Below, piece after piece: positions 2,704 to 63,332 of a stretch of DNA of 64,000 bases. Under the pieces are notes generated by a model. It made no database searches and was not told the DNA's origin. It saw only the letters and a list, made by a program, of their open reading frames with translations. The stretch is taken from positions 208,411 through 272,410 of the forward strand of contig DASRDX010000009.1 of the NCBI GenBank assembly GCA_035652395.1. Direction: 5' to 3'. Source of the stretch: Minisyncoccota bacterium (lineage in GTDB: Bacteria > Patescibacteriota > Minisyncoccia > Phycocordibacterales > CAJBRS01). The position numbers and the translations under genes are program-made. Each line of letters opens with the position of its first letter. The stretch's first letter is position 1.

Positions 2704-3772
<1,069 letters not shown>

Positions 3773-3794: not shown

Positions 3795-5036
3795 TTGAAT
3801 ATGAATGTTTTTTATGCGGTTTACGTGCTGTTAATAGTGGCCATTCCGTTCTTTTTTATCTACGCCTTCGTTCGCTTGTGGCTGCGCTATGCCCGAACAG
3901 ATTTCGAATCAAGACAAAAATACACTTTGCTTGAATTGAAGGTACCTCGCGAAATCACCAAATCGCCGGCTGCCATGGAGATCTTTCTGACCGCTCTATA
4001 TCAGACTGGGGCCGCCACCTATCTTGAAACTTATTGGCAGGGAAAACTCCGACCGGTTTTTTCCTTGGAACTCGTCTCGCTTGAGGGTCGAGTACATTTT
4101 TATATTTGGACTCGTCAGGCTTGGAAAAATATCATTGAGTCGCAAATTTATGCTCAGTATCCGACGGTGGAAGTAGTGGAAGTTTCTGATTACACCGACA
4201 TGATCGAGCACGCCGAGAATGACATGGTGATGTGGGGCACTTATTTTAAGAAAAAAGAGGATGAGGTTTACCCCATCAAAACTTATATTGACTACGGACT
4301 AGATCAAAATCCGAAAGAGGAACACAAGGTGGATCCGATGACTTCGGTCTTGGAATATCTCGGCTCACTGCATCAGAACGAATATGCTTGGATTCAAATT
4401 ATCATCCAAGCTCATAAGAGTGAGGGAATAAAAGAAGGGCGGATTTTTCACGCCAAGAAAAATGATTGGAAAGATGCGGTAAAAGAAGAAATTCAGAAAA
4501 TTCGCGAGGAAATCTTAAAAAGCGGCGGCGAAAATATTCGCGTACCGAATCCTACCAGAGCCCAGCAGGAATTAATCGCCTCCATGGAGCGTAATCTGGC
4601 TAAATTTCCTTTTGAATGCTGCATTCGGGGCATCTATCTTGCCAAGGGCGAAATCTTCAACAATCACTTGGGGATCTCAGGTTTAATTGGCAGCTTCCGT
4701 CAGTATTCCTCTCCGTCACGTTTAAATAATATTTCTTTGGGCTGGTTTACCGATCACGACGACTTTGGCAAAGATATGCTGACTTTGTTTGGCTGGTTTC
4801 CGCCGCTTCGAAACGCCATGCGTCGGCGGCGAGATCGGATGGAAAGACATATGCTTGAAGCTTACAAACATCGCGGAGCTTTTGAGCCTCCCTTTACCGA
4901 TCATCATGAGCCGTTTGTTATGACTACCGAGGAGCTTGCCACCGTCTTTCACTTTCCGGGTGAAGTGGCCGCTACACCTACCTTTGATCGCATTCCGGCT
5001 AAGAAAGCCGAAGCGCCTTCTAACTTACCGATTTAA
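3795..5036 (+). CDS. Hypothetical membrane-anchored protein
   Basis: 413-aa ORF with an N-terminal TM helix and protein-like composition. No motif recognised. Confidence 0.5.
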   Translation: MNMNVFYAVYVLLIVAIPFFFIYAFVRLWLRYARTDFESRQKYTLLELKVPREITKSPAAMEIFLTALYQTGAATYLETYWQGKLRPVFSLELVSLEGRVHFYIWTRQAWKNIIESQIYAQYPTVEVVEVSDYTDMIEHAENDMVMWGTYFKKKEDEVYPIKTYIDYGLDQNPKEEHKVDPMTSVLEYLGSLHQNEYAWIQIIIQAHKSEGIKEGRIFHAKKNDWKDAVKEEIQKIREEILKSGGENIRVPNPTRAQQELIASMERNLAKFPFECCIRGIYLAKGEIFNNHLGISGLIGSFRQYSSPSRLNNISLGWFTDHDDFGKDMLTLFGWFPPLRNAMRRRRDRMERHMLEAYKHRGAFEPPFTDHHEPFVMTTEELATVFHFPGEVAATPTFDRIPAKKAEAPSNLPI

Positions 5037-6019
5037 TGTCTTGGAACAATCAGCTTAAAGAGAAGGCCAAAATTCTGTTCCAGCGACTCGGTCTTTACGG
5101 CATTTTAATTATTTGCGTCCTCCTATTTTGTTTTTATTTATTCTTTTTTCAGACACCGCGCAATTTCAAACCCGACTCAACTATCAAGATCGAAGCCGGG
5201 CAAAGCGTTTATTCGGTGACGCGCGAGATGACAAAAGAGGGCATTATAAATTCTTCTTTTTGGCTGACCAATTTAATTATTTTAACCGGCGGCGAGCATC
5301 GAGTAGTCGCCGGCTATTATCTGTTTCAGAGTCCGGAAAATCTTTTTACCATTGCTCATCGCATTACACACGGAAAGTTCGGCATTGTTCAGATCAAGGT
5401 CACTATTCCTGAAGGCCTGAATGTTTCAGAGATCGCCGATATTTATAAACAGAAATTCAATCTTTTCGATGAAGAGGGATTCTTGAGTCTGGCCAAGCCG
5501 AAGGAAGGATATCTATTTCCGGAAACTTATTTTTTCATTCCAACGGTTACGCCCGCAGAAGTTGTTACCATGATGTCTACCACTTTTAATCAGAAAATTG
5601 CCCCCCTGGAGCCCGCTTTGGCCACTTCCAGTCATTCTTTGAACGAAATCATTACTATGGCCTCGATTTTGGAAGGCGAGGCCAAGACTGTAGAGGATAA
5701 GAAAATCGTCTCCGGTATTCTTTGGCAGCGGCTGGCGGATGGGGTGGCTCTGGGAGTAGATTCCACTTTTAAATACATTAACGGCAAAAGTTCGGCTGAA
5801 TTAACTGCCGCCGATCTCAAAACTAAATCTCCCTATAATACTTATCTAAATCGCGGCCTGCCACCGACTCCAATTTCCAATCCAGGTCTTGAATCCATTG
5901 AAGCGGCTCTTAATCCAACTATCACCGATTATTACTATTTCCTTTCCGATAAAGAGGGGAATATTCACTATGCCAAGACTCTGAAGGAGCATCTGGCCAA
6001 TATTAAAAAGTATCTTTGA
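5036..6019 (+). CDS. mltG: Endolytic murein transglycosylase MltG (YceG family)
   Basis: N-terminal TM followed by a YceG-like domain. The C-terminal SPYNTYLNRGLPPTPISNPG signature is present. The ATG overlaps the upstream stop (TAATG). Confidence 0.8.
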   Translation: MSWNNQLKEKAKILFQRLGLYGILIICVLLFCFYLFFFQTPRNFKPDSTIKIEAGQSVYSVTREMTKEGIINSSFWLTNLIILTGGEHRVVAGYYLFQSPENLFTIAHRITHGKFGIVQIKVTIPEGLNVSEIADIYKQKFNLFDEEGFLSLAKPKEGYLFPETYFFIPTVTPAEVVTMMSTTFNQKIAPLEPALATSSHSLNEIITMASILEGEAKTVEDKKIVSGILWQRLADGVALGVDSTFKYINGKSSAELTAADLKTKSPYNTYLNRGLPPTPISNPGLESIEAALNPTITDYYYFLSDKEGNIHYAKTLKEHLANIKKYL

Positions 6020-7163: not shown

Positions 7164-8009
7164 ATGCATAAATCCAATATTCAAATCATCAAAAATACTG
7201 GCGAAAGGGAATTTTTTGATCCGGAAAAGCTAATTGACTCCTTGCGAGACGCCGGTGCCGACAAATTGGTGATTGAAAAAGTAGTGAAGCATATTGAAGA
7301 TGAACTTCACGATGGTATGACTACGCGGGCTATTTATGATCACGCTTTTCAATATTTAAAAAAGCTCCAAAGGCCGGTAGCCGCCCGCTATTCGCTGAAA
7401 AAAGCTATTGCCGAGCTTGGACCAACCGGTTTTCCTTTTGAAGATTACGTGGCTAGAATTTTTAGCTCTCGGGGTTATAAAACCCTAACGGATCAAATGG
7501 TGCTGGGAAGCTGCGTCCCGCACGAAGTTGATATTGTGGCCTGGAACAAGGAGAAGCTCATCATGTGCGAAGTGAAATTCCATAATGAAACTAGTCCGAA
7601 GACTGATCTAAAAGTGGCTCTTTACGTGAAGGCTCGCTTTGACGATCTGAAAGCTAACATTTTTGATTACGGACACGAACGCCGGCTGGATGAAGGTTGG
7701 CTCATCACCAATACTAAATTCACTGAAACAGCTATTCACTATGGCGAGTGCTACGGTCTCAAAATGGTCGGCTGGGATTATCCGAAAAAGGGCAATCTTC
7801 AACAATTCATTGAAGACCAAGAGCTTCATCCCATTACCTGTCTCACCACTCTAACCTCCGCTGAAAAGACCGACCTTCTCGCTAACAAAATCGTCCTCTG
7901 CCGCGAACTCTTAGAAAATCACCATCATCTCTTTACGCACCTCCCCGACGCCCAAAAACGCCTCCCCGAAATTTTGGAGGAAATAAACTATCTGACAGGA
8001 CAGAAGTAA
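7164..8009 (+). CDS. ATP-cone domain fused to Mrr-like restriction endonuclease (PD-(D/E)xK) domain protein
   Basis: N-terminal IQIIKNTGEREFFDPEKLIDSLRDAG...VVKHIEDEL has an ATP-cone-like pattern. The central VDIVAWNKEKLIMCEVKF region is a D...E.K nuclease core of Mrr_cat type. Confidence 0.65.
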   Translation: MHKSNIQIIKNTGEREFFDPEKLIDSLRDAGADKLVIEKVVKHIEDELHDGMTTRAIYDHAFQYLKKLQRPVAARYSLKKAIAELGPTGFPFEDYVARIFSSRGYKTLTDQMVLGSCVPHEVDIVAWNKEKLIMCEVKFHNETSPKTDLKVALYVKARFDDLKANIFDYGHERRLDEGWLITNTKFTETAIHYGECYGLKMVGWDYPKKGNLQQFIEDQELHPITCLTTLTSAEKTDLLANKIVLCRELLENHHHLFTHLPDAQKRLPEILEEINYLTGQK

Positions 8010-50710: not shown

Positions 50711-50951
50711 ACGGCAGCAGGGAGGCTTTCTTCAGATCATATTGGTCTTAGTAATTGCGCTGGTGATTCTTCACTATCTTAATATCAGCCTACTTGAACT
50801 CTTAAGTAAGAAATCTGTCCACGACTTTTTTGTTTATGTATGGGATCTAACTAAAATTATTTGGCAAGATTTTCTTCTACTTCTAAACTTCATTCGCGGT
50901 ATTGTCCAAGGCCATTGACATATCTGTTTTTATATTATATTATTGAAGTAG

Positions 50952-51239
50952 ATGAAAAATGCTACTTCGAAAGCAAAAGCTAAAAAGAAGAAAAGTGGAT
51001 CTCGTCCACGAGGAAAGATTTCCCCAAAGAAGCAGGGCAGCTCTTCAAAAATCATCAGTTTTGCTAAAGCCAGCCGACTGATAAAGAAAGGACGAGTCAG
51101 ACTGAAATTCGTCGGAGGTATGGCGGAATTGGAGTTCAGTTCCGAGGTTATCCAAGAGACTGGTCATTGCCCCTGCGGTCTTATCGAGTGTGGCGGATTA
51201 ATGGCCATAAGATTCTTGGACGGGAAGCCTCTTTCTTGA
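50952..51239 (+). CDS. Hypothetical small basic Cys-containing protein
   Basis: Lys-rich N-terminal tail and HCPCG...CGG motif. Followed by an intrinsic terminator. Confidence 0.45.
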   Translation: MKNATSKAKAKKKKSGSRPRGKISPKKQGSSSKIISFAKASRLIKKGRVRLKFVGGMAELEFSSEVIQETGHCPCGLIECGGLMAIRFLDGKPLS

Positions 51240-51252
51240 ATTCAATCTATTC

Positions 51253-51285
51253 AAAGACTCTGCCCTTGGTAGAGTCTTTTTATTT
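51253..51285 (+). terminator. Intrinsic terminator after gene 50952-51239
   Basis: AAAGACTCT-gcccttggt-AGAGTCTTT followed by TTATTT. Confidence 0.75.
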
Positions 51286-51290
51286 AAATA

Positions 51291-51311
51291 AAAACTGCGC
51301 TAAAACGCAGT
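51291..51311 (-). terminator. Intrinsic terminator for minus-strand gene 51312-51611
   Basis: CTGCG-ttttag-CGCAG followed by TTTTTATTT on the minus strand. Confidence 0.6.
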
Positions 51312-51611
51312 TCAAGCTTTAGTTAGGCGCCGAAGACTGCCACGAACAGGAATCAAGCGGATCTCCATACCTGTTAACCGATATTCAAAAATTCCAACTT
51401 GATATTTATAGAAGAGCTCAAATCCAGCCGGCCCGTGTAGGTATTCATATGTAATGTGGTATAGAAGTTCGTCCTGAAGGCCGAAATCGCAACTGTTTAT
51501 ATTGATCCATTCCTTAAGGGTCAGGGTACAAATGTCACCATTCCAGCTATAAGCCGAGGCCACGTGTTGGCAGCTGAAAAGTAGACAAAGGGCAAATAGG
51601 AGTTTTTTCAT
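51312..51611 (-). CDS. Hypothetical small secreted protein
   Basis: Signal peptide MKKLLFALCLLFSCQHVASA. Has its own terminator hairpin. Confidence 0.45.
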   Translation of the reverse strand: MKKLLFALCLLFSCQHVASAYSWNGDICTLTLKEWININSCDFGLQDELLYHITYEYLHGPAGFELFYKYQVGIFEYRLTGMEIRLIPVRGSLRRLTKA

Positions 51612-51664
51612 CTGCTCTAAAGTATAGCCATCCGGCCTAGAAAAAGTTATCCACAGCCCTATAG

Positions 51665-51694
51665 TTGACAGGTGAACTATGGTTCACCTATACT
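51665..51694 (+). promoter_or_regulatory. Consensus promoter TTGACA-18-TATACT with embedded LexA (Cheo-type) SOS box GAACTATGGTTC at 51674-51685
   Basis: Perfect GAAC-N4-GTTC palindrome within the spacer of a near-consensus sigma70 promoter. It drives the small ORF plus lexA. Confidence 0.8.
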
Positions 51695-51700
51695 ATAGAC

Positions 51701-51901
51701 ATGGGTAAAAGTCAGATTTTAAACAAAATTAGATATGAGCTCGACAAGTTAAATGAGCAGATCGATCTAGCTATTATTGAGGGCCGCAACTACAAATCTT
51801 TGGCTAGTAAACATAAGATTTTGCTTTCCCGATTCAACCGATTGCAGAGTGAGGGAAGTTCTTTACTAACTAAAAGCTTTCGTTTCTTAACGTTATTTTA
51901 A
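51701..51901 (+). CDS. Hypothetical small protein co-transcribed upstream of lexA (leaderless)
   Basis: ATG lies 6 nt after the TATACT -10 of the LexA-box promoter. The stop is 1 nt before the lexA ATG. Confidence 0.35.
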   Translation: MGKSQILNKIRYELDKLNEQIDLAIIEGRNYKSLASKHKILLSRFNRLQSEGSSLLTKSFRFLTLF

Positions 51902-51902
51902 G

Positions 51903-52475
51903 ATGAACATGGATCATAAAGATAAAATCATCGGTTTCTATCAAAAGCACGGACGATTGCCGGGCTACAAAGAAATGATGAGCATGCTCGGTTTCAAATC
52001 CAAGAATGCCGTTTTTAAGCTGATTAATAAGCTGGTAGATGAAGGAATTCTGAATAAAGACAGCAACGGTCGCATCAGTCTCAACTCCATTTTTGATGAA
52101 ATCCCTTTACTCGGTTTGGTAGAAGCTGGTATTCCGGAAACGGCGGAAGAGATCCGGGGTGACACCATTAGTCTTGAAGATTTCTTGGTGGAGAATAAAG
52201 ATTCTACTTATCTTCTGGAGGTTAAGGGTGATTCCATGATTGATGCTCATATTGAGGAAGGGGATATGGTACTGGTCGATCGCAAAGGTAAGCCAAAGGA
52301 AGGAGATATTGTTATCGCCGAAGTCGACGGAGGCTGGACTATGAAGTATCTGCGCCGCGACAGTCGAACCGGCAAGCACTATCTTCAGCCGGCTAATAAG
52401 AATTACCGCAATATTTATCCGGAATATGAGATGAAAATCGCCGCCATTGTTCGGGCAGTTATCAGAAAATATTAA
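51903..52475 (+). CDS. lexA: LexA repressor
   Basis: N-terminal wHTH and an S24 peptidase domain with GDSM serine and EEGDMVLVDRKGKPKEGDIV lysine region. Confidence 0.93.
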   Translation: MNMDHKDKIIGFYQKHGRLPGYKEMMSMLGFKSKNAVFKLINKLVDEGILNKDSNGRISLNSIFDEIPLLGLVEAGIPETAEEIRGDTISLEDFLVENKDSTYLLEVKGDSMIDAHIEEGDMVLVDRKGKPKEGDIVIAEVDGGWTMKYLRRDSRTGKHYLQPANKNYRNIYPEYEMKIAAIVRAVIRKY

Positions 52476-52731
52476 TTAGGTCATTAAAGTAAGATTTATC
52501 AACCGTTTACGTCATCAAAAACATGTTGTATTACGATTATCAAACTAAGGAGAGACGACTTCAGAGAGCAAAGCATCGCTTTGCCAGTCATTTCCAGATC
52601 TTTTTGAAGTTCCACAATAAGCTCGTCACTCTTTCTTTATTTTAGTTAGGTCTTAGTTAAATCGGCGGTTAGCTTGTTAGGAATTTACTCCTAACGGCTA
52701 ACTTTCTGATTTACTGGCCCACTATTTTTAT

Positions 52732-53880
52732 ATGGAGCCTTTAGCCTCGCGTATTAGGCCTCGGAGTTTGAAGGAATTTATCGGTCAATCTCACTTAGTG
52801 GGCCGCGGAAAGTCTTTGGCTATTGCTATTAAAGAGAAGCATCTTTTTTCTTTTATTTTGTGGGGACCGCCGGGGGTCGGAAAAACTACTCTGGCTAAAA
52901 TTTATGCTGACGCTCTAGATGTGGAGTTTCATCATCTCTCGGCTGTCTCGGCCGGCAAAGATGACATTAAGCAATTGGTGGGGAAGGGTAATCTCCTTTC
53001 CAAACCGAAGTTGCTTTTTCTCGATGAGATACATCGTTTTAACAAAGCCCAGCAGGATTTTTTGTTGCCTTACGTAGAAAGTGGCGAAATTACTTTAATC
53101 GGAGCCACCACAGAAAATCCGAGTTTTGAAGTTATTCCGGCTTTGCTTAGTCGCTGTCGGGTATTTGTCCTAAATGAGTTGACTGATGCGGAGATGTCTA
53201 AAATTATTGATCGAACCGGCCTGAAGCTTTCTAAAGATTCAAAAGAGTGGCTAATTGGTATGGCCAATGGTGATGCCCGACAGGCCATTACTATGCTTGA
53301 AGCCGTTTCGAAACTTTATGATGAAATTACTCCCAAGACTCTGGCGGAAACTTTGCAGAGCAAATTTTTGCGTTTTGATAAGAAAGGAGAAGAGCATTAC
53401 AACACTATAAGTGCTTTCATTAAAAGTATGCGCGCCAGTCAACCGGACGCGGCGCTATATTATCTGGCCAGAATGATTGAGAGCGGAGAGGATCCAAAAT
53501 TTATTGCTCGCAGAATGGTTATCTTTGCCTCGGAAGATATCGGACAGGCTAACCCAACCTCCTTAGTAGTGGCCAATGAAGTGTTTAAGGCGGTTGAGAT
53601 AATTGGATTACCGGAATGCGCCATTAACTTGGCTGACGGCACGGTTTATTTGTGCCGTCAGCCAAAATCGAAGGCCTCTTACGAGGCCTTCGGCCGCGCC
53701 ATGGAAGATGCCAAAAAATTCGGCAATCTTCCAATTCCACTAAAGATTCGCAATGCTCCCACCAAACTGATGAAAGATCTCGGCTATCACAAAGGATATG
53801 AACGCTACAGCAAAGAAGACCTTCTTCCGGAAAAATTAAAAGGGAAGAAGTATTATAAAAATGATAAGAGTAAGTTATAA
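52732..53880 (+). CDS. rarA: Replication-associated recombination protein A (AAA+)
   Basis: GPPGVGKTT Walker A, LFLDEIHRF Walker B and MgsA C-terminal pattern. Confidence 0.92.
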   Translation: MEPLASRIRPRSLKEFIGQSHLVGRGKSLAIAIKEKHLFSFILWGPPGVGKTTLAKIYADALDVEFHHLSAVSAGKDDIKQLVGKGNLLSKPKLLFLDEIHRFNKAQQDFLLPYVESGEITLIGATTENPSFEVIPALLSRCRVFVLNELTDAEMSKIIDRTGLKLSKDSKEWLIGMANGDARQAITMLEAVSKLYDEITPKTLAETLQSKFLRFDKKGEEHYNTISAFIKSMRASQPDAALYYLARMIESGEDPKFIARRMVIFASEDIGQANPTSLVVANEVFKAVEIIGLPECAINLADGTVYLCRQPKSKASYEAFGRAMEDAKKFGNLPIPLKIRNAPTKLMKDLGYHKGYERYSKEDLLPEKLKGKKYYKNDKSKL

Positions 53881-62539: not shown

Positions 62540-62983
62540 TTACTTATTGATAGCGACGCTTGAGCTTGCGGCGGATTTGGCCACATTGTCCCAACAGGCG
62601 CTGGAAGAAATCCACGGCTCCGAACCCTGCGAAGTGTAGAGATAACGGGCGTAGGCCATGTTGCCTTTTAAGGTGTAGATATCGAGACCCATCTTTTTCG
62701 AAGTCTGGAGGTGGTATTTTTCGTTAATCTGCATCACTCCGACGTCACTGGTATTAATGGAACCGCGATAAATATTGCCGTTTGAGGCATATTGATGGTA
62801 ATGCGATTCACACTGAGCGATATCGGCCATTAAAGGAATGTCCTTAAAGTAGGCCTTTACTGCCGCTTCCACCTTCTTAGGGCTCACATAAAGGGTTTTT
62901 TCATCCGGCTTTTGAGCTACCTTGGAGCTGGAGGTGGCCAGCAAAAGGGCTACTTTATTGACTGGCTGACCCTTCGTGGCCAC
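62540..62983 (-). CDS. Transglycosylase-like (Rpf-like lysozyme fold) domain protein
   Basis: DIAQCESHY...VGVMQIN resembles the transglycosylase-like domain CESGG/Q core. GTG start in the ORF track. Confidence 0.55.
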   Translation of the reverse strand: MATKGQPVNKVALLLATSSSKVAQKPDEKTLYVSPKKVEAAVKAYFKDIPLMADIAQCESHYHQYASNGNIYRGSINTSDVGVMQINEKYHLQTSKKMGLDIYTLKGNMAYARYLYTSQGSEPWISSSACWDNVAKSAASSSVAINK

Positions 62984-63159
62984 AGTTTCTTCAGCATGAA
63001 GAACCGAATAGGTATTCGGTGAAAGATTCGGAGTTTGTGAAATTAGAGCGGCGCTAGTCGGTTTTGGGGTAATTAAGAGGGATACGGCAGTAAATGCTGC
63101 AATAAATAAATGTATTATAAGCCTTTTTTTAGCTGATAAACTGAAGACTTACCGGGAGA

Positions 63160-63186
63160 AGAAAAAACCAGACATCATGTCTGGTA
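63160..63186 (-). terminator. Minus-strand intrinsic terminator (CCAGACAT...ATGTCTGG followed by TTTTTTC)
   Basis: Palindrome 63168-63184 with an A-run on the plus side, giving a U-tract on the minus strand. Confidence 0.55.
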
Positions 63187-63332
63187 ATCAATATACTAGC
63201 AGATTTGAGGTTTTTTTCAAGGCCGCTGTGGATAAAAAATAAAGGAAATTTTATATTTCGTGCCTTAAAATAAGCATTTTTTAACTTGGTCCAATTGACA
63301 ATTTACTCTAAAATGTGGTAAAAACAGTTAAG

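Follow-up and report, generated by a model that had tools for sequence, protein, structure and literature searches.

A small-protein gene ahead of lexA in a predicted autoregulated SOS operon of Paceibacteria

Why should the gene for the SOS repressor LexA be preceded, on what looks like its own transcript, by a gene for a small protein? The question is raised by a locus in a metagenome-assembled genome (MAG) of Candidatus Paceibacterota (Paceibacteria), an uncultured bacterium of the candidate phyla radiation (CPR). We analysed a 64-kb window of this genome, meaning the whole stretch of DNA at its full length, in which an open reading frame (ORF) of 66 codons lies between an SOS-type promoter and lexA. 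Comparison with related genomes makes the operon architecture and the autoregulation of the Paceibacteria lexA locus highly probable. The overall best explanation, which we hold with moderate confidence, would be an autoregulated SOS operon with an effector-type small protein as its first cistron. An autoregulated Cheo-type SOS promoter is in itself of an already known kind; what appears to be new, or at least unannotated, with priority partly uncertain, is the small-protein family as the first lexA-operon cistron, the 16-bp operator in the promoter spacer, and a DnaA-box-like element upstream.

A sequence-only reading of the window had listed the -35 hexamer, an 18-nucleotide (nt) spacer with the box, the -10 hexamer, the first ATG, the 66-codon ORF and the lexA ATG, and we found all of these at the positions it gave. 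That list was without the conserved TTATCCACA element 5' of the -35 hexamer. The features of the locus are as follows.

51647-51655, + strand: DnaA-box-like element TTATCCACA, recognised by its identity to the DnaA-box consensus, 9 nt 5' of the -35 hexamer
51665-51670, + strand: -35 hexamer TTGACA, from direct reading and promoter scan; TTGAC/TTGCA-type in relatives
51672-51687, + strand: predicted LexA operator GTGAAC-TATG-GTTCAC, occupying the promoter spacer
51674-51685, + strand: Cheo-type core GAACTATGGTTC (GAAC-N4-GTTC), from direct reading
51689-51694, + strand: -10 hexamer TATACT, from direct reading and promoter scan; TATA(C/A)T in relatives
51701-51703, + strand: predicted transcription start at A 51701, coinciding with the ATG of the small ORF (leaderless geometry)
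51701-51901, + strand: small ORF, 66 amino acids plus stop, of an unnamed Paceibacteria family (NCBI hypothetical protein VFA52_01615)
51707-51850, + strand: residues 3-50 of the small protein, a two-helix antiparallel hairpin predicted by AlphaFold2, holding all eight invariant residues
51851-51898, + strand: residues 51-66, a predicted disordered linker and aromatic/hydrophobic C-terminal tail (...SFRFLTLF), with a predicted local distance difference test score (pLDDT) of 51-54
51899-51905, + strand: stop-start junction TAA-G-ATG with a 1-nt gap and no Shine-Dalgarno (SD) sequence, a putative translational coupling site
51903-52475, + strand: lexA, 190 amino acids, with a putative N-terminal winged-helix region and an S24 autopeptidase domain (Pfam, TIGR00498, alignment with 3k2z)
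52125-52130, + strand: Ala75-Gly76 codons, the predicted autocleavage site (VEAG), aligning with the AG of Thermotoga maritima LexA
52233-52235, + strand: Ser111 codon (GDSM), the predicted catalytic nucleophile, aligning with GESM of 3k2z and GDSM of UmuD
52344-52346, + strand: Lys148 codon (TMKY), the predicted general base of the Ser-Lys dyad, at the aligned position in 3k2z and UmuD

The operator and the identity of LexA

The promoter scan gave the window promoter a score of 11/12 with a spacer of 18 nt, and on direct reading the operator core extends to the longer perfect palindrome GGTGAAC-TATG-GTTCACC. The GAAC-N4-GTTC box taken alone is not statistically significant, because 0.66 sites are expected by chance per window against the one found, and at least one site occurred in 43 of 100 shuffles; its significance comes from its position and its conservation among relatives, not from rarity in the window. 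A LexA-anchored scan, with one genome per species, yielded 80 Paceibacteria loci with LexA identities of 59-78%. The twelve arm positions of GTGAAC-N4-GTTCAC are invariant in all 79 non-identical lexA-operon promoters from this clade, the central N4 is nearly free (0.2-0.45 bits), and the palindrome always has a TTGAC-type -35 on its 5' side and a TATA(C/A)T -10 on its 3' side. The layout TTGAC(A/T)-GGTGAAC-N4-GTTCACC-TATA(C/A)T-N6-ATG is common to the two closest relatives, with only N4 and N6 varying. A look for further GAAC-N4-GTTC sites, which had been suggested as a check, returned the single copy in the window, and in 564 kb of related sequence 81 of the 84 sites occupy the lexA-operon promoter position, while the remaining three are without the GT/AC flanks. 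Only two other sites in the window resemble GTGAAC-N4-GTTCAC, both at exactly two mismatches and none closer.

The autoregulation proposed from the window alone is thus matched by a predicted operator that is invariant inside the promoter spacer in 79/79 promoters. The description of the site as a perfect Cheo-type box holds in part: the GAAC-N4-GTTC core stands, but the canonical flanks and centre, C-GAAC-RNRY-GTTC-G/C, do not, the flanks being invariantly T...A and the N4 nearly free. From the promoter alignment, we conclude that GTGAAC-N4-GTTCAC is a clade-specific variant of the Cheo-type box. A LexA dimer on this palindrome would block RNA polymerase between the -35 and the -10, as the overlap of the two footprints suggests; upon DNA damage, RecA-stimulated self-cleavage of LexA at Ala75-Gly76 by Ser111/Lys148 would free the promoter.

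Autoregulated lexA (dinR) genes with Cheo-box operators (consensus CGAACRNRYGTTYC) are known from Bacillus subtilis and other Gram-positive bacteria. The GAAC-N4-GTTC core is common to these and to the Paceibacteria, as are LexA on its own promoter, the S24 Ser-Lys autopeptidase, and the Ala-Gly cleavage site. However, the flanks are GT...AC in Paceibacteria (GTGAAC-N4-GTTCAC) instead of the C...G of the Gram-positive box, and the Paceibacteria possess a single operator exactly within the -35/-10 spacer, with lexA in second place behind the small gene. The LexA motif and the SOS regulon of the Patescibacteria, the same superphylum and the same regulator as here, were reportedly reconstructed by comparative genomics by Sanchez-Osuna, Barbe and Erill in 2017 (Environ Microbiol 19:3465), a study cited in PMC8565304 and PMC7739468.

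By several sequence criteria, the downstream gene is lexA. Its product matches Peptidase_S24 (PF00717) in Pfam with an E-value of 2.4e-26 and 92 bits against a cut-off of 23.3, and matches the T. maritima LexA structure 3k2z over its full length at 7.8e-18; residues A75-G76, S111 (GDSM), and K148 align with 3k2z and UmuD. The LexA-type winged helix PF01726 gives a weak match (E 0.017, 15.3 bits against a cut-off of 23.7), and the 3k2z alignment spans residues 11-189. TIGR00498 lexA is the top NCBIfam match with 104 bits, under the equivalog cut-off of 110.95, and we attribute this narrow miss to CPR divergence.

The TIGR00498 score slightly under its cut-off also bears on another explanation, namely that the locus is a cI-like S24 repressor module of a prophage or mobile element, with a small partner, instead of a cellular SOS operon. 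S24 repressors with small neighbour genes are frequent in prophages, and in PHROGs the LexA protein matches UmuD-like and CI-like families. However, the module exists as a single conserved copy amid housekeeping genes (asnB and rarA, as also in locus L001), recurs in 80 species at 59-78% LexA identity with an invariant operator, and encodes a protein that aligns with T. maritima LexA over its full length. In addition, a scan of 2.9 million viral contigs turned up no relatives of the small protein, and a Y-family polymerase is linked to the lexA operon in several loci. We regard a prophage origin as extremely unlikely. The loci L006 to L009 and many other loci of the Paceibacteria clade carry the label 'uncultured Candidatus Saccharibacteria' in Third Party Annotation assemblies, and among these clade loci, which also include L030 and L051, one is labelled Bacteroidales and one Nitrospira sp.; the public records probably contain binning or labelling errors here.

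The small gene in front of lexA

The 66-residue protein is identical to the NCBI hypothetical protein VFA52_01615 from a Candidatus Paceibacterota MAG. A single-sequence search with it retrieved only 3 proteins, owing to the word-index prefilter and not to rarity. Its two close homologues (68-71% identity) are each encoded directly 5' of an S24 gene, an exhaustive profile search gave 139 clusters at 50% identity, and the alignment query returned 219 proteins, all 'hypothetical' and without Pfam domains; the family members that carry organism names all belong to Paceibacteria/Parcubacteria. The family hidden Markov model placed a homologous same-strand ORF behind the SOS promoter and ahead of lexA in 82 of 83 loci, in keeping with the proposal of the sequence-only reading that lexA is the second cistron behind the 66-residue ORF. 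In the reverse direction, an S24/LexA gene lies directly behind five of five divergent small proteins, counting L083, in which this gene is a 61-residue fragment cut by the contig end. In a comparison of three close genomes, the nonsynonymous divergence (pN) of the small ORF was ~0.20 while synonymous sites were saturated (pS 0.8-1.0), and the pN values of lexA, asnB, and rarA in the same genomes were 0.12, 0.12, and 0.08, respectively. Eight residues, E13, N18, I21, D22, I25, G28, Y31, and H38, are invariant in 113 sequences. Conservation of the ORF in relatives had been named as the point on which its reality should be judged, and its presence in 82/83 loci together with the substitution pattern indicates that the 66-residue ORF is a real gene under purifying selection.

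One locus lacks the small gene. In L004, whose LexA is 77% identical, the small ORF has been precisely lost and the promoter is the same as that of its relative L002; the DnaA-box-like element, -35, operator, and -10 (2940-3010) are intact and are joined to lexA via the 9-nt leader AGAAAGGCG.

The start of the small ORF is called too far upstream in several records. A TTG-start ORF of 78 residues in the window (51665-51901) and the family member P0015 have their start called at the TTG of the -35 hexamer, and in P0046, P0050, P0080, and P0140 the gene-caller start is still further upstream. The resulting spurious N-terminus, '...GELWFTYT...', is the translated LexA operator and -10, and the upstream-extended start is a recurring mis-annotation of this family in public databases.

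The A at 51701 is situated 7 nt beyond the last T of the -10 in the window. Across the loci, the -10-to-ATG distance is bimodal, with 7-8 nt in 14 loci, 9-26 nt in none, and at least 27 nt in the rest, which is the pattern expected if a message has either no leader or a leader long enough to load a ribosome. The predicted start position is an A in 61/79 promoters and is preceded by a pyrimidine in 60/79, also where a leader exists. Of the 64 genes in the window, 15 carry a -10-like hexamer whose end falls exactly 7-8 nt ahead of the ATG, whereas other positions average about 0.3 each, and those with a TATAAT-like leaderless geometry include the genes starting at 7164, 10573, 12631, 15021, 42786, 48866, 56993, and 58677 (minus strand); an SD-like 4-mer precedes only 5 of the 64. 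The bimodal distances, the conserved pyrimidine-A step, and the same geometry in 15/64 window genes all point the same way as the earlier suggestion of a leaderless small ORF, and we consider a leaderless start at A 51701 likely. In the source genome, it appears to be usual for translation to be initiated without a leader and for internal starts to do without an SD. The mRNA transcribed from A 51701 would begin with the AUG of the 66-residue ORF and would be translated without a leader. Leaderless mRNAs were reportedly described by Cortes et al. in 2013, a work cited in PMC12641261 and mentioned as an example for Actinobacteria, Deinococcus, and archaea. As in the present locus, such messages have a -10 ending 6-7 nt before an AUG that is the transcription start, and no SD; the difference is that our case is read from sequence alone, in a CPR genome. 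A literature search on leaderless translation in CPR/Paceibacteria returned nothing relevant.

The stop codon TAA of the small ORF (51899-51901) is followed by a single G (51902) and then by the lexA ATG (51903), and the lexA stop lies at 52475. The gap between the two genes is mostly no more than 38 nt across the loci, overlaps of -4 and -1 included, and reaches 60-540 nt in about 20 loci. Being without an SD and starting 1 nt after the stop, lexA might be translated by termination-reinitiation, so that the repressor and the small protein would be made from one message. This arrangement raises the alternative that the small ORF is simply a translational device delivering ribosomes to the SD-less lexA start, its peptide being unimportant. 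The 1-nt distance from stop to start, the short gaps or overlaps in most loci, and the near absence of SD motifs would fit such a device. However, eight invariant residues and a confidently predicted, conserved fold with a position-specific tail motif speak against a device of this kind, and the pN is well under the saturated pS; furthermore, the ORF is kept in the loci with 60-540 nt gaps, and in L004 lexA stands directly behind the same promoter. We therefore consider the device very improbable.

AlphaFold2, run with a 113-sequence alignment, predicted helices at residues 3-27 and 32-50 that form a hairpin with a pLDDT of about 97, and the prediction for a second, typical family member showed the same hairpin and a low-confidence tail. 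The net charge is +6 in the window protein, and it averages +8 in the family, whose members have about 67 residues. Among 113 members, individual positions of the tail are conserved (W-14, F-13, R/K-11, S-10, F-7, F-3, M/L-2, and F/L-1), giving the motif W-14 F-13 x R/K S x S F V S x F-3 M/L F/L-COOH. No transmembrane (TM) segment was detected in 113/113 members, the maximum 19-residue Kyte-Doolittle mean being 0.93 against a threshold of about 1.6, and neither LysM nor any other Pfam domain was found in the family. Taken together, the small protein is predicted to be an alpha-hairpin, basic and soluble, whose aromatic motif at the C-terminus is both disordered and conserved. The small protein has no match in Pfam, NCBIfam, PHROGs, or PADLOC, and a Foldseek search against the PDB returned only generic helical hairpins, all with E>0.8.

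Several assignments were tried and rejected. A TM or small-toxin protein of the TisB/SidA type is excluded by the lack of a TM segment. A ribbon-helix-helix reading of the G-x-S turn conflicts with the high-confidence AlphaFold helix from residue 3, and no ribbon-helix-helix match was obtained in Pfam. The window protein ends in FLTLF and P0003 in GLTLF, an end that prompted the idea of a beta-clamp-binding motif (QL[SD]LF), but the family tail, S-x-F-(M/L)-(F/L), has no Q and carries F at position 3. Membership in ribosomal protein bS20 was also rejected, with PDB E-values of only 0.15-0.4 and no Pfam S20 match at E<=1 among 29 members.

The bS20 echo is also the starting point for an alternative role, in which the small protein is a nucleic-acid-binding hairpin, acting on DNA, RNA, or the ribosome during the damage response. 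The mean net charge of +8 on about 67 residues would suit such binding, and the only chains recovered by the PDB sequence profile, non-significantly (E 0.15-0.4), are those of bS20, where the helix 2-3 hairpin reads 'ID.A..KG....N.AaR.KSrL' against 'ID.KIIKG.SY..EARRHK.L' in the family (residues about 15-48). However, these matches fall short of significance and find no counterpart in Pfam S20, the fold search gives generic hairpins only, and a nucleic-acid-binding role leaves the conserved aromatic C-terminal motif unexplained. We rate it as improbable.

A DnaA-box-like element upstream of the promoter

The element TTATCCACA at 51647-51655 is identical to the strong form of the DnaA-box consensus 9-mer TTATNCACA; that TTATCCACA is the DnaA-box consensus is established knowledge. 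It is conserved in at least 61 of the 79 lexA-operon promoters under the rule TT[AT]TNCACA, most of the others being one base off, and the sequence around it is otherwise unconserved. The spacing between the element and the -35 falls into three classes of 0, 6-10, and 17-19 nt, which may reflect helical phasing. The 564 kb of related sequence hold 79 copies of TTATCCACA, whereas control 9-mers of matched composition occur about 5 times, and 22 of the 25 copies outside lexA operons are intergenic. In the window there are 2 perfect copies, with the one-mismatch count at chance, and on these counts TTATCCACA was rejected as a general promoter element of the source genome.

Inverted TTATCCACA-like boxes, single or tandem (e.g. 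TGTGAATAG-TA-TGTGGATAA), are situated just 5' of TTGAC...TATACT promoter clusters in related loci, before rpoB in L059 (4245-4320), L023, L047, L066, and L082, and before ychF, the gene of the YchF GTPase, in L022 and L077. The rpoB genes behind these promoters have a leader of 250-330 nt. Minus-strand genes had been considered as targets of the non-lexA boxes and were discarded, since the boxes are inverted copies 5' of the plus-strand rpoB and ychF promoters. The distribution suggests that a small regulon shares a TTATCCACA-like box with the lexA operon. From the sequence of the box, we lean towards DnaA, acting as a transcription factor, as the protein that binds it. Lying 9 nt 5' of the -35, at a position typical of activators, TTATCCACA would then provide a second input, through which DnaA would report the replication status. 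Our literature search yielded no publication that connects a DnaA box with the promoter of lexA.

The second perfect TTATCCACA of the window (63227-63235, minus strand; context 63150-63240) is followed by a promoter-like TTATCCACAG-N5-TTGAAA-N17-TAGTAT, directly after which come a hairpin, CCAGACAT-GATGTCTGG, and a T-run. The next minus-strand ORF (62540-62983) has a weak SLT-domain match in Pfam (E 2.5e-4, 21.0 bits against a cut-off of 21.3). This hairpin site could be a short RNA, an attenuator, or chance.

Candidate roles of the small protein and the extent of the operon

What would such a protein do at the head of the lexA transcript? The aromatic C-terminus, which is disordered and conserved, suggests that the protein docks on a partner, on the membrane, or on a protease. 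Our first choice, a tentative one drawn from analogy, is a damage-induced checkpoint effector that would dock through this tail and inhibit division or replication. The Gram-positive SOS division inhibitors YneA, SosA, ChiZ, and DivS, encoded next to lexA, provide the precedent, and like the present family they are small, fast-evolving, LexA-controlled, and physically linked to lexA (PMC6851548).

Several points weigh against an effector-headed operon of this form. YneA, SosA, ChiZ, and DivS are divergently transcribed from lexA and contain one TM helix and often a LysM domain (PMC6851548), whereas the Paceibacteria small gene is co-directional with lexA on its 5' side, and its product is soluble and basic without TM helix or LysM. 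Since the repressor is needed at all times, an inhibitor made from the same transcript could be tolerated only if it were unstable or did no harm at its basal level. At least one lineage can do without the small protein, as the clean deletion of the ORF in L004 shows. A leader of 27-60 nt is present in most relatives, so that the operon is not defined by leaderlessness. The inverted TTATCCACA boxes before the rpoB and ychF promoters mean that the factor involved could be a global regulator other than DnaA. Finally, the scan of the window detected no plus-strand terminator after lexA, so the transcript may exceed two cistrons.

Two known systems help to place the proposed effector. In lexA-sulA of Pseudomonas and Xanthomonas and in lexA-dinF of Escherichia coli, lexA forms an operon with a co-transcribed SOS partner. 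They resemble the Paceibacteria locus in carrying the repressor and an SOS effector on one autoregulated transcript; however, lexA comes first in them, whereas here the small gene is first and probably leaderless, and SulA and DinF are unrelated to the small-protein family. In the case of B. subtilis sda, a DnaA-box-controlled gene encodes a small helical-hairpin checkpoint protein. Sda shares with our protein the small alpha-hairpin and the DnaA boxes in its promoter, and it responds to replication or damage stress, but the two proteins are not similar in sequence, the sporulation kinase on which Sda acts is missing here, and sda is neither in a lexA operon nor LexA-repressed. A fuller version of the effector proposal is a lineage-specific checkpoint module, in which a two-signal lexA promoter, reading damage through LexA and replication status through DnaA at a phased upstream box, would be combined with a new type of soluble, basic hairpin protein whose conserved aromatic tail docks on a replisome or divisome hub and pauses the cell cycle; we think this rather unlikely as a whole.

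Alternatively, the small protein may be an accessory of the SOS switch that binds LexA, as a co-repressor or modulator of autocleavage, or that binds RecA. Such accessories exist elsewhere, in phage GIL01 gp7, Acinetobacter DdrR, DinI, and RecX. The near-obligate pairing with lexA, seen in both search directions, would be consistent with this role, as would the small helical fold with its docking-type disordered tail; the coupling gaps of -4 to a few nt suggest co-ordinated synthesis, which is common for interacting partners. However, L004 retains promoter, operator, and an intact lexA despite the loss of the ORF, the gap of 60-540 nt in about 20 loci means that coupling is not universal, and no similarity to known LexA/RecA modulators was found in sequence or fold (libraries, PDB, and fold search). 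We judge an accessory of LexA or RecA to be possible but doubtful, and keep the checkpoint effector as our first choice.

As for the extent of the operon, rarA (MgsA-type AAA+ ATPase, Pfam MgsA_C 7.5e-52; 52732-53880) lies 256 nt 3' of lexA (interval and rarA together, window 52476-53880). The scan gave neither a plus-strand promoter nor a terminator in the lexA-rarA interval, rarA is without a leaderless-type -10, and it may be the third cistron of the SOS transcript; the lexA-rarA synteny occurs only in the closest relatives (3/80 loci). A Y-family (IMS) polymerase follows lexA in 5 of the 80 loci and in L087, which supports the SOS character of the operon. In L087/L088 the polymerase gene (3998-5293) overlaps the lexA stop, and an ORF of 77 residues without a Pfam match (3275-3508) is situated between the small gene and lexA. 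L007 (2829-3005) and L048 (2742-2966) share an extra small ORF, MSK(S/N)KILYS..GF.KFR..FGD, and L028 and L057 share a 41-residue ORF (2860-2989).

Upstream of the operon, a second near-consensus promoter in the window, TTGACA-N17-TATTAT (11/12), is located 9 nt before the ATG of a lysine-rich ORF of 95 residues (50915-51239), which has no family match. A convergent, terminator-like hairpin pair (51253-51313) separates it from a minus-strand ORF of 99 residues (51312-51611), which has a signal-peptide-like N-terminus and likewise no family match. No Rfam RNA family was found in the window or in 13 related loci, and no tRNAs in those loci.

Much of bacterial diversity belongs to the CPR/Patescibacteria, nearly all of which are uncultured and which possess very few transcription factors. 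For the way in which these bacteria couple DNA damage, replication, and division, the lexA locus offers three testable handles. The invariant 16-bp operator provides a search pattern with which the SOS regulon of any Paceibacteria genome can be delimited. No gene accompanies lexA more constantly in the class than that of the small-protein family (139 clusters at 50% identity), and for this reason the family is a leading candidate for the SOS effector of the clade or for an accessory of its SOS switch. The box at a fixed phase, found also at the rpoB and ychF promoters, points to a second global regulator on the SOS operon. The mis-called starts and the routine leaderless initiation matter for the annotation of CPR genomes. 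If the checkpoint module should prove true, it would be a non-membrane, CPR-specific functional counterpart of SulA, YneA, or SidA.

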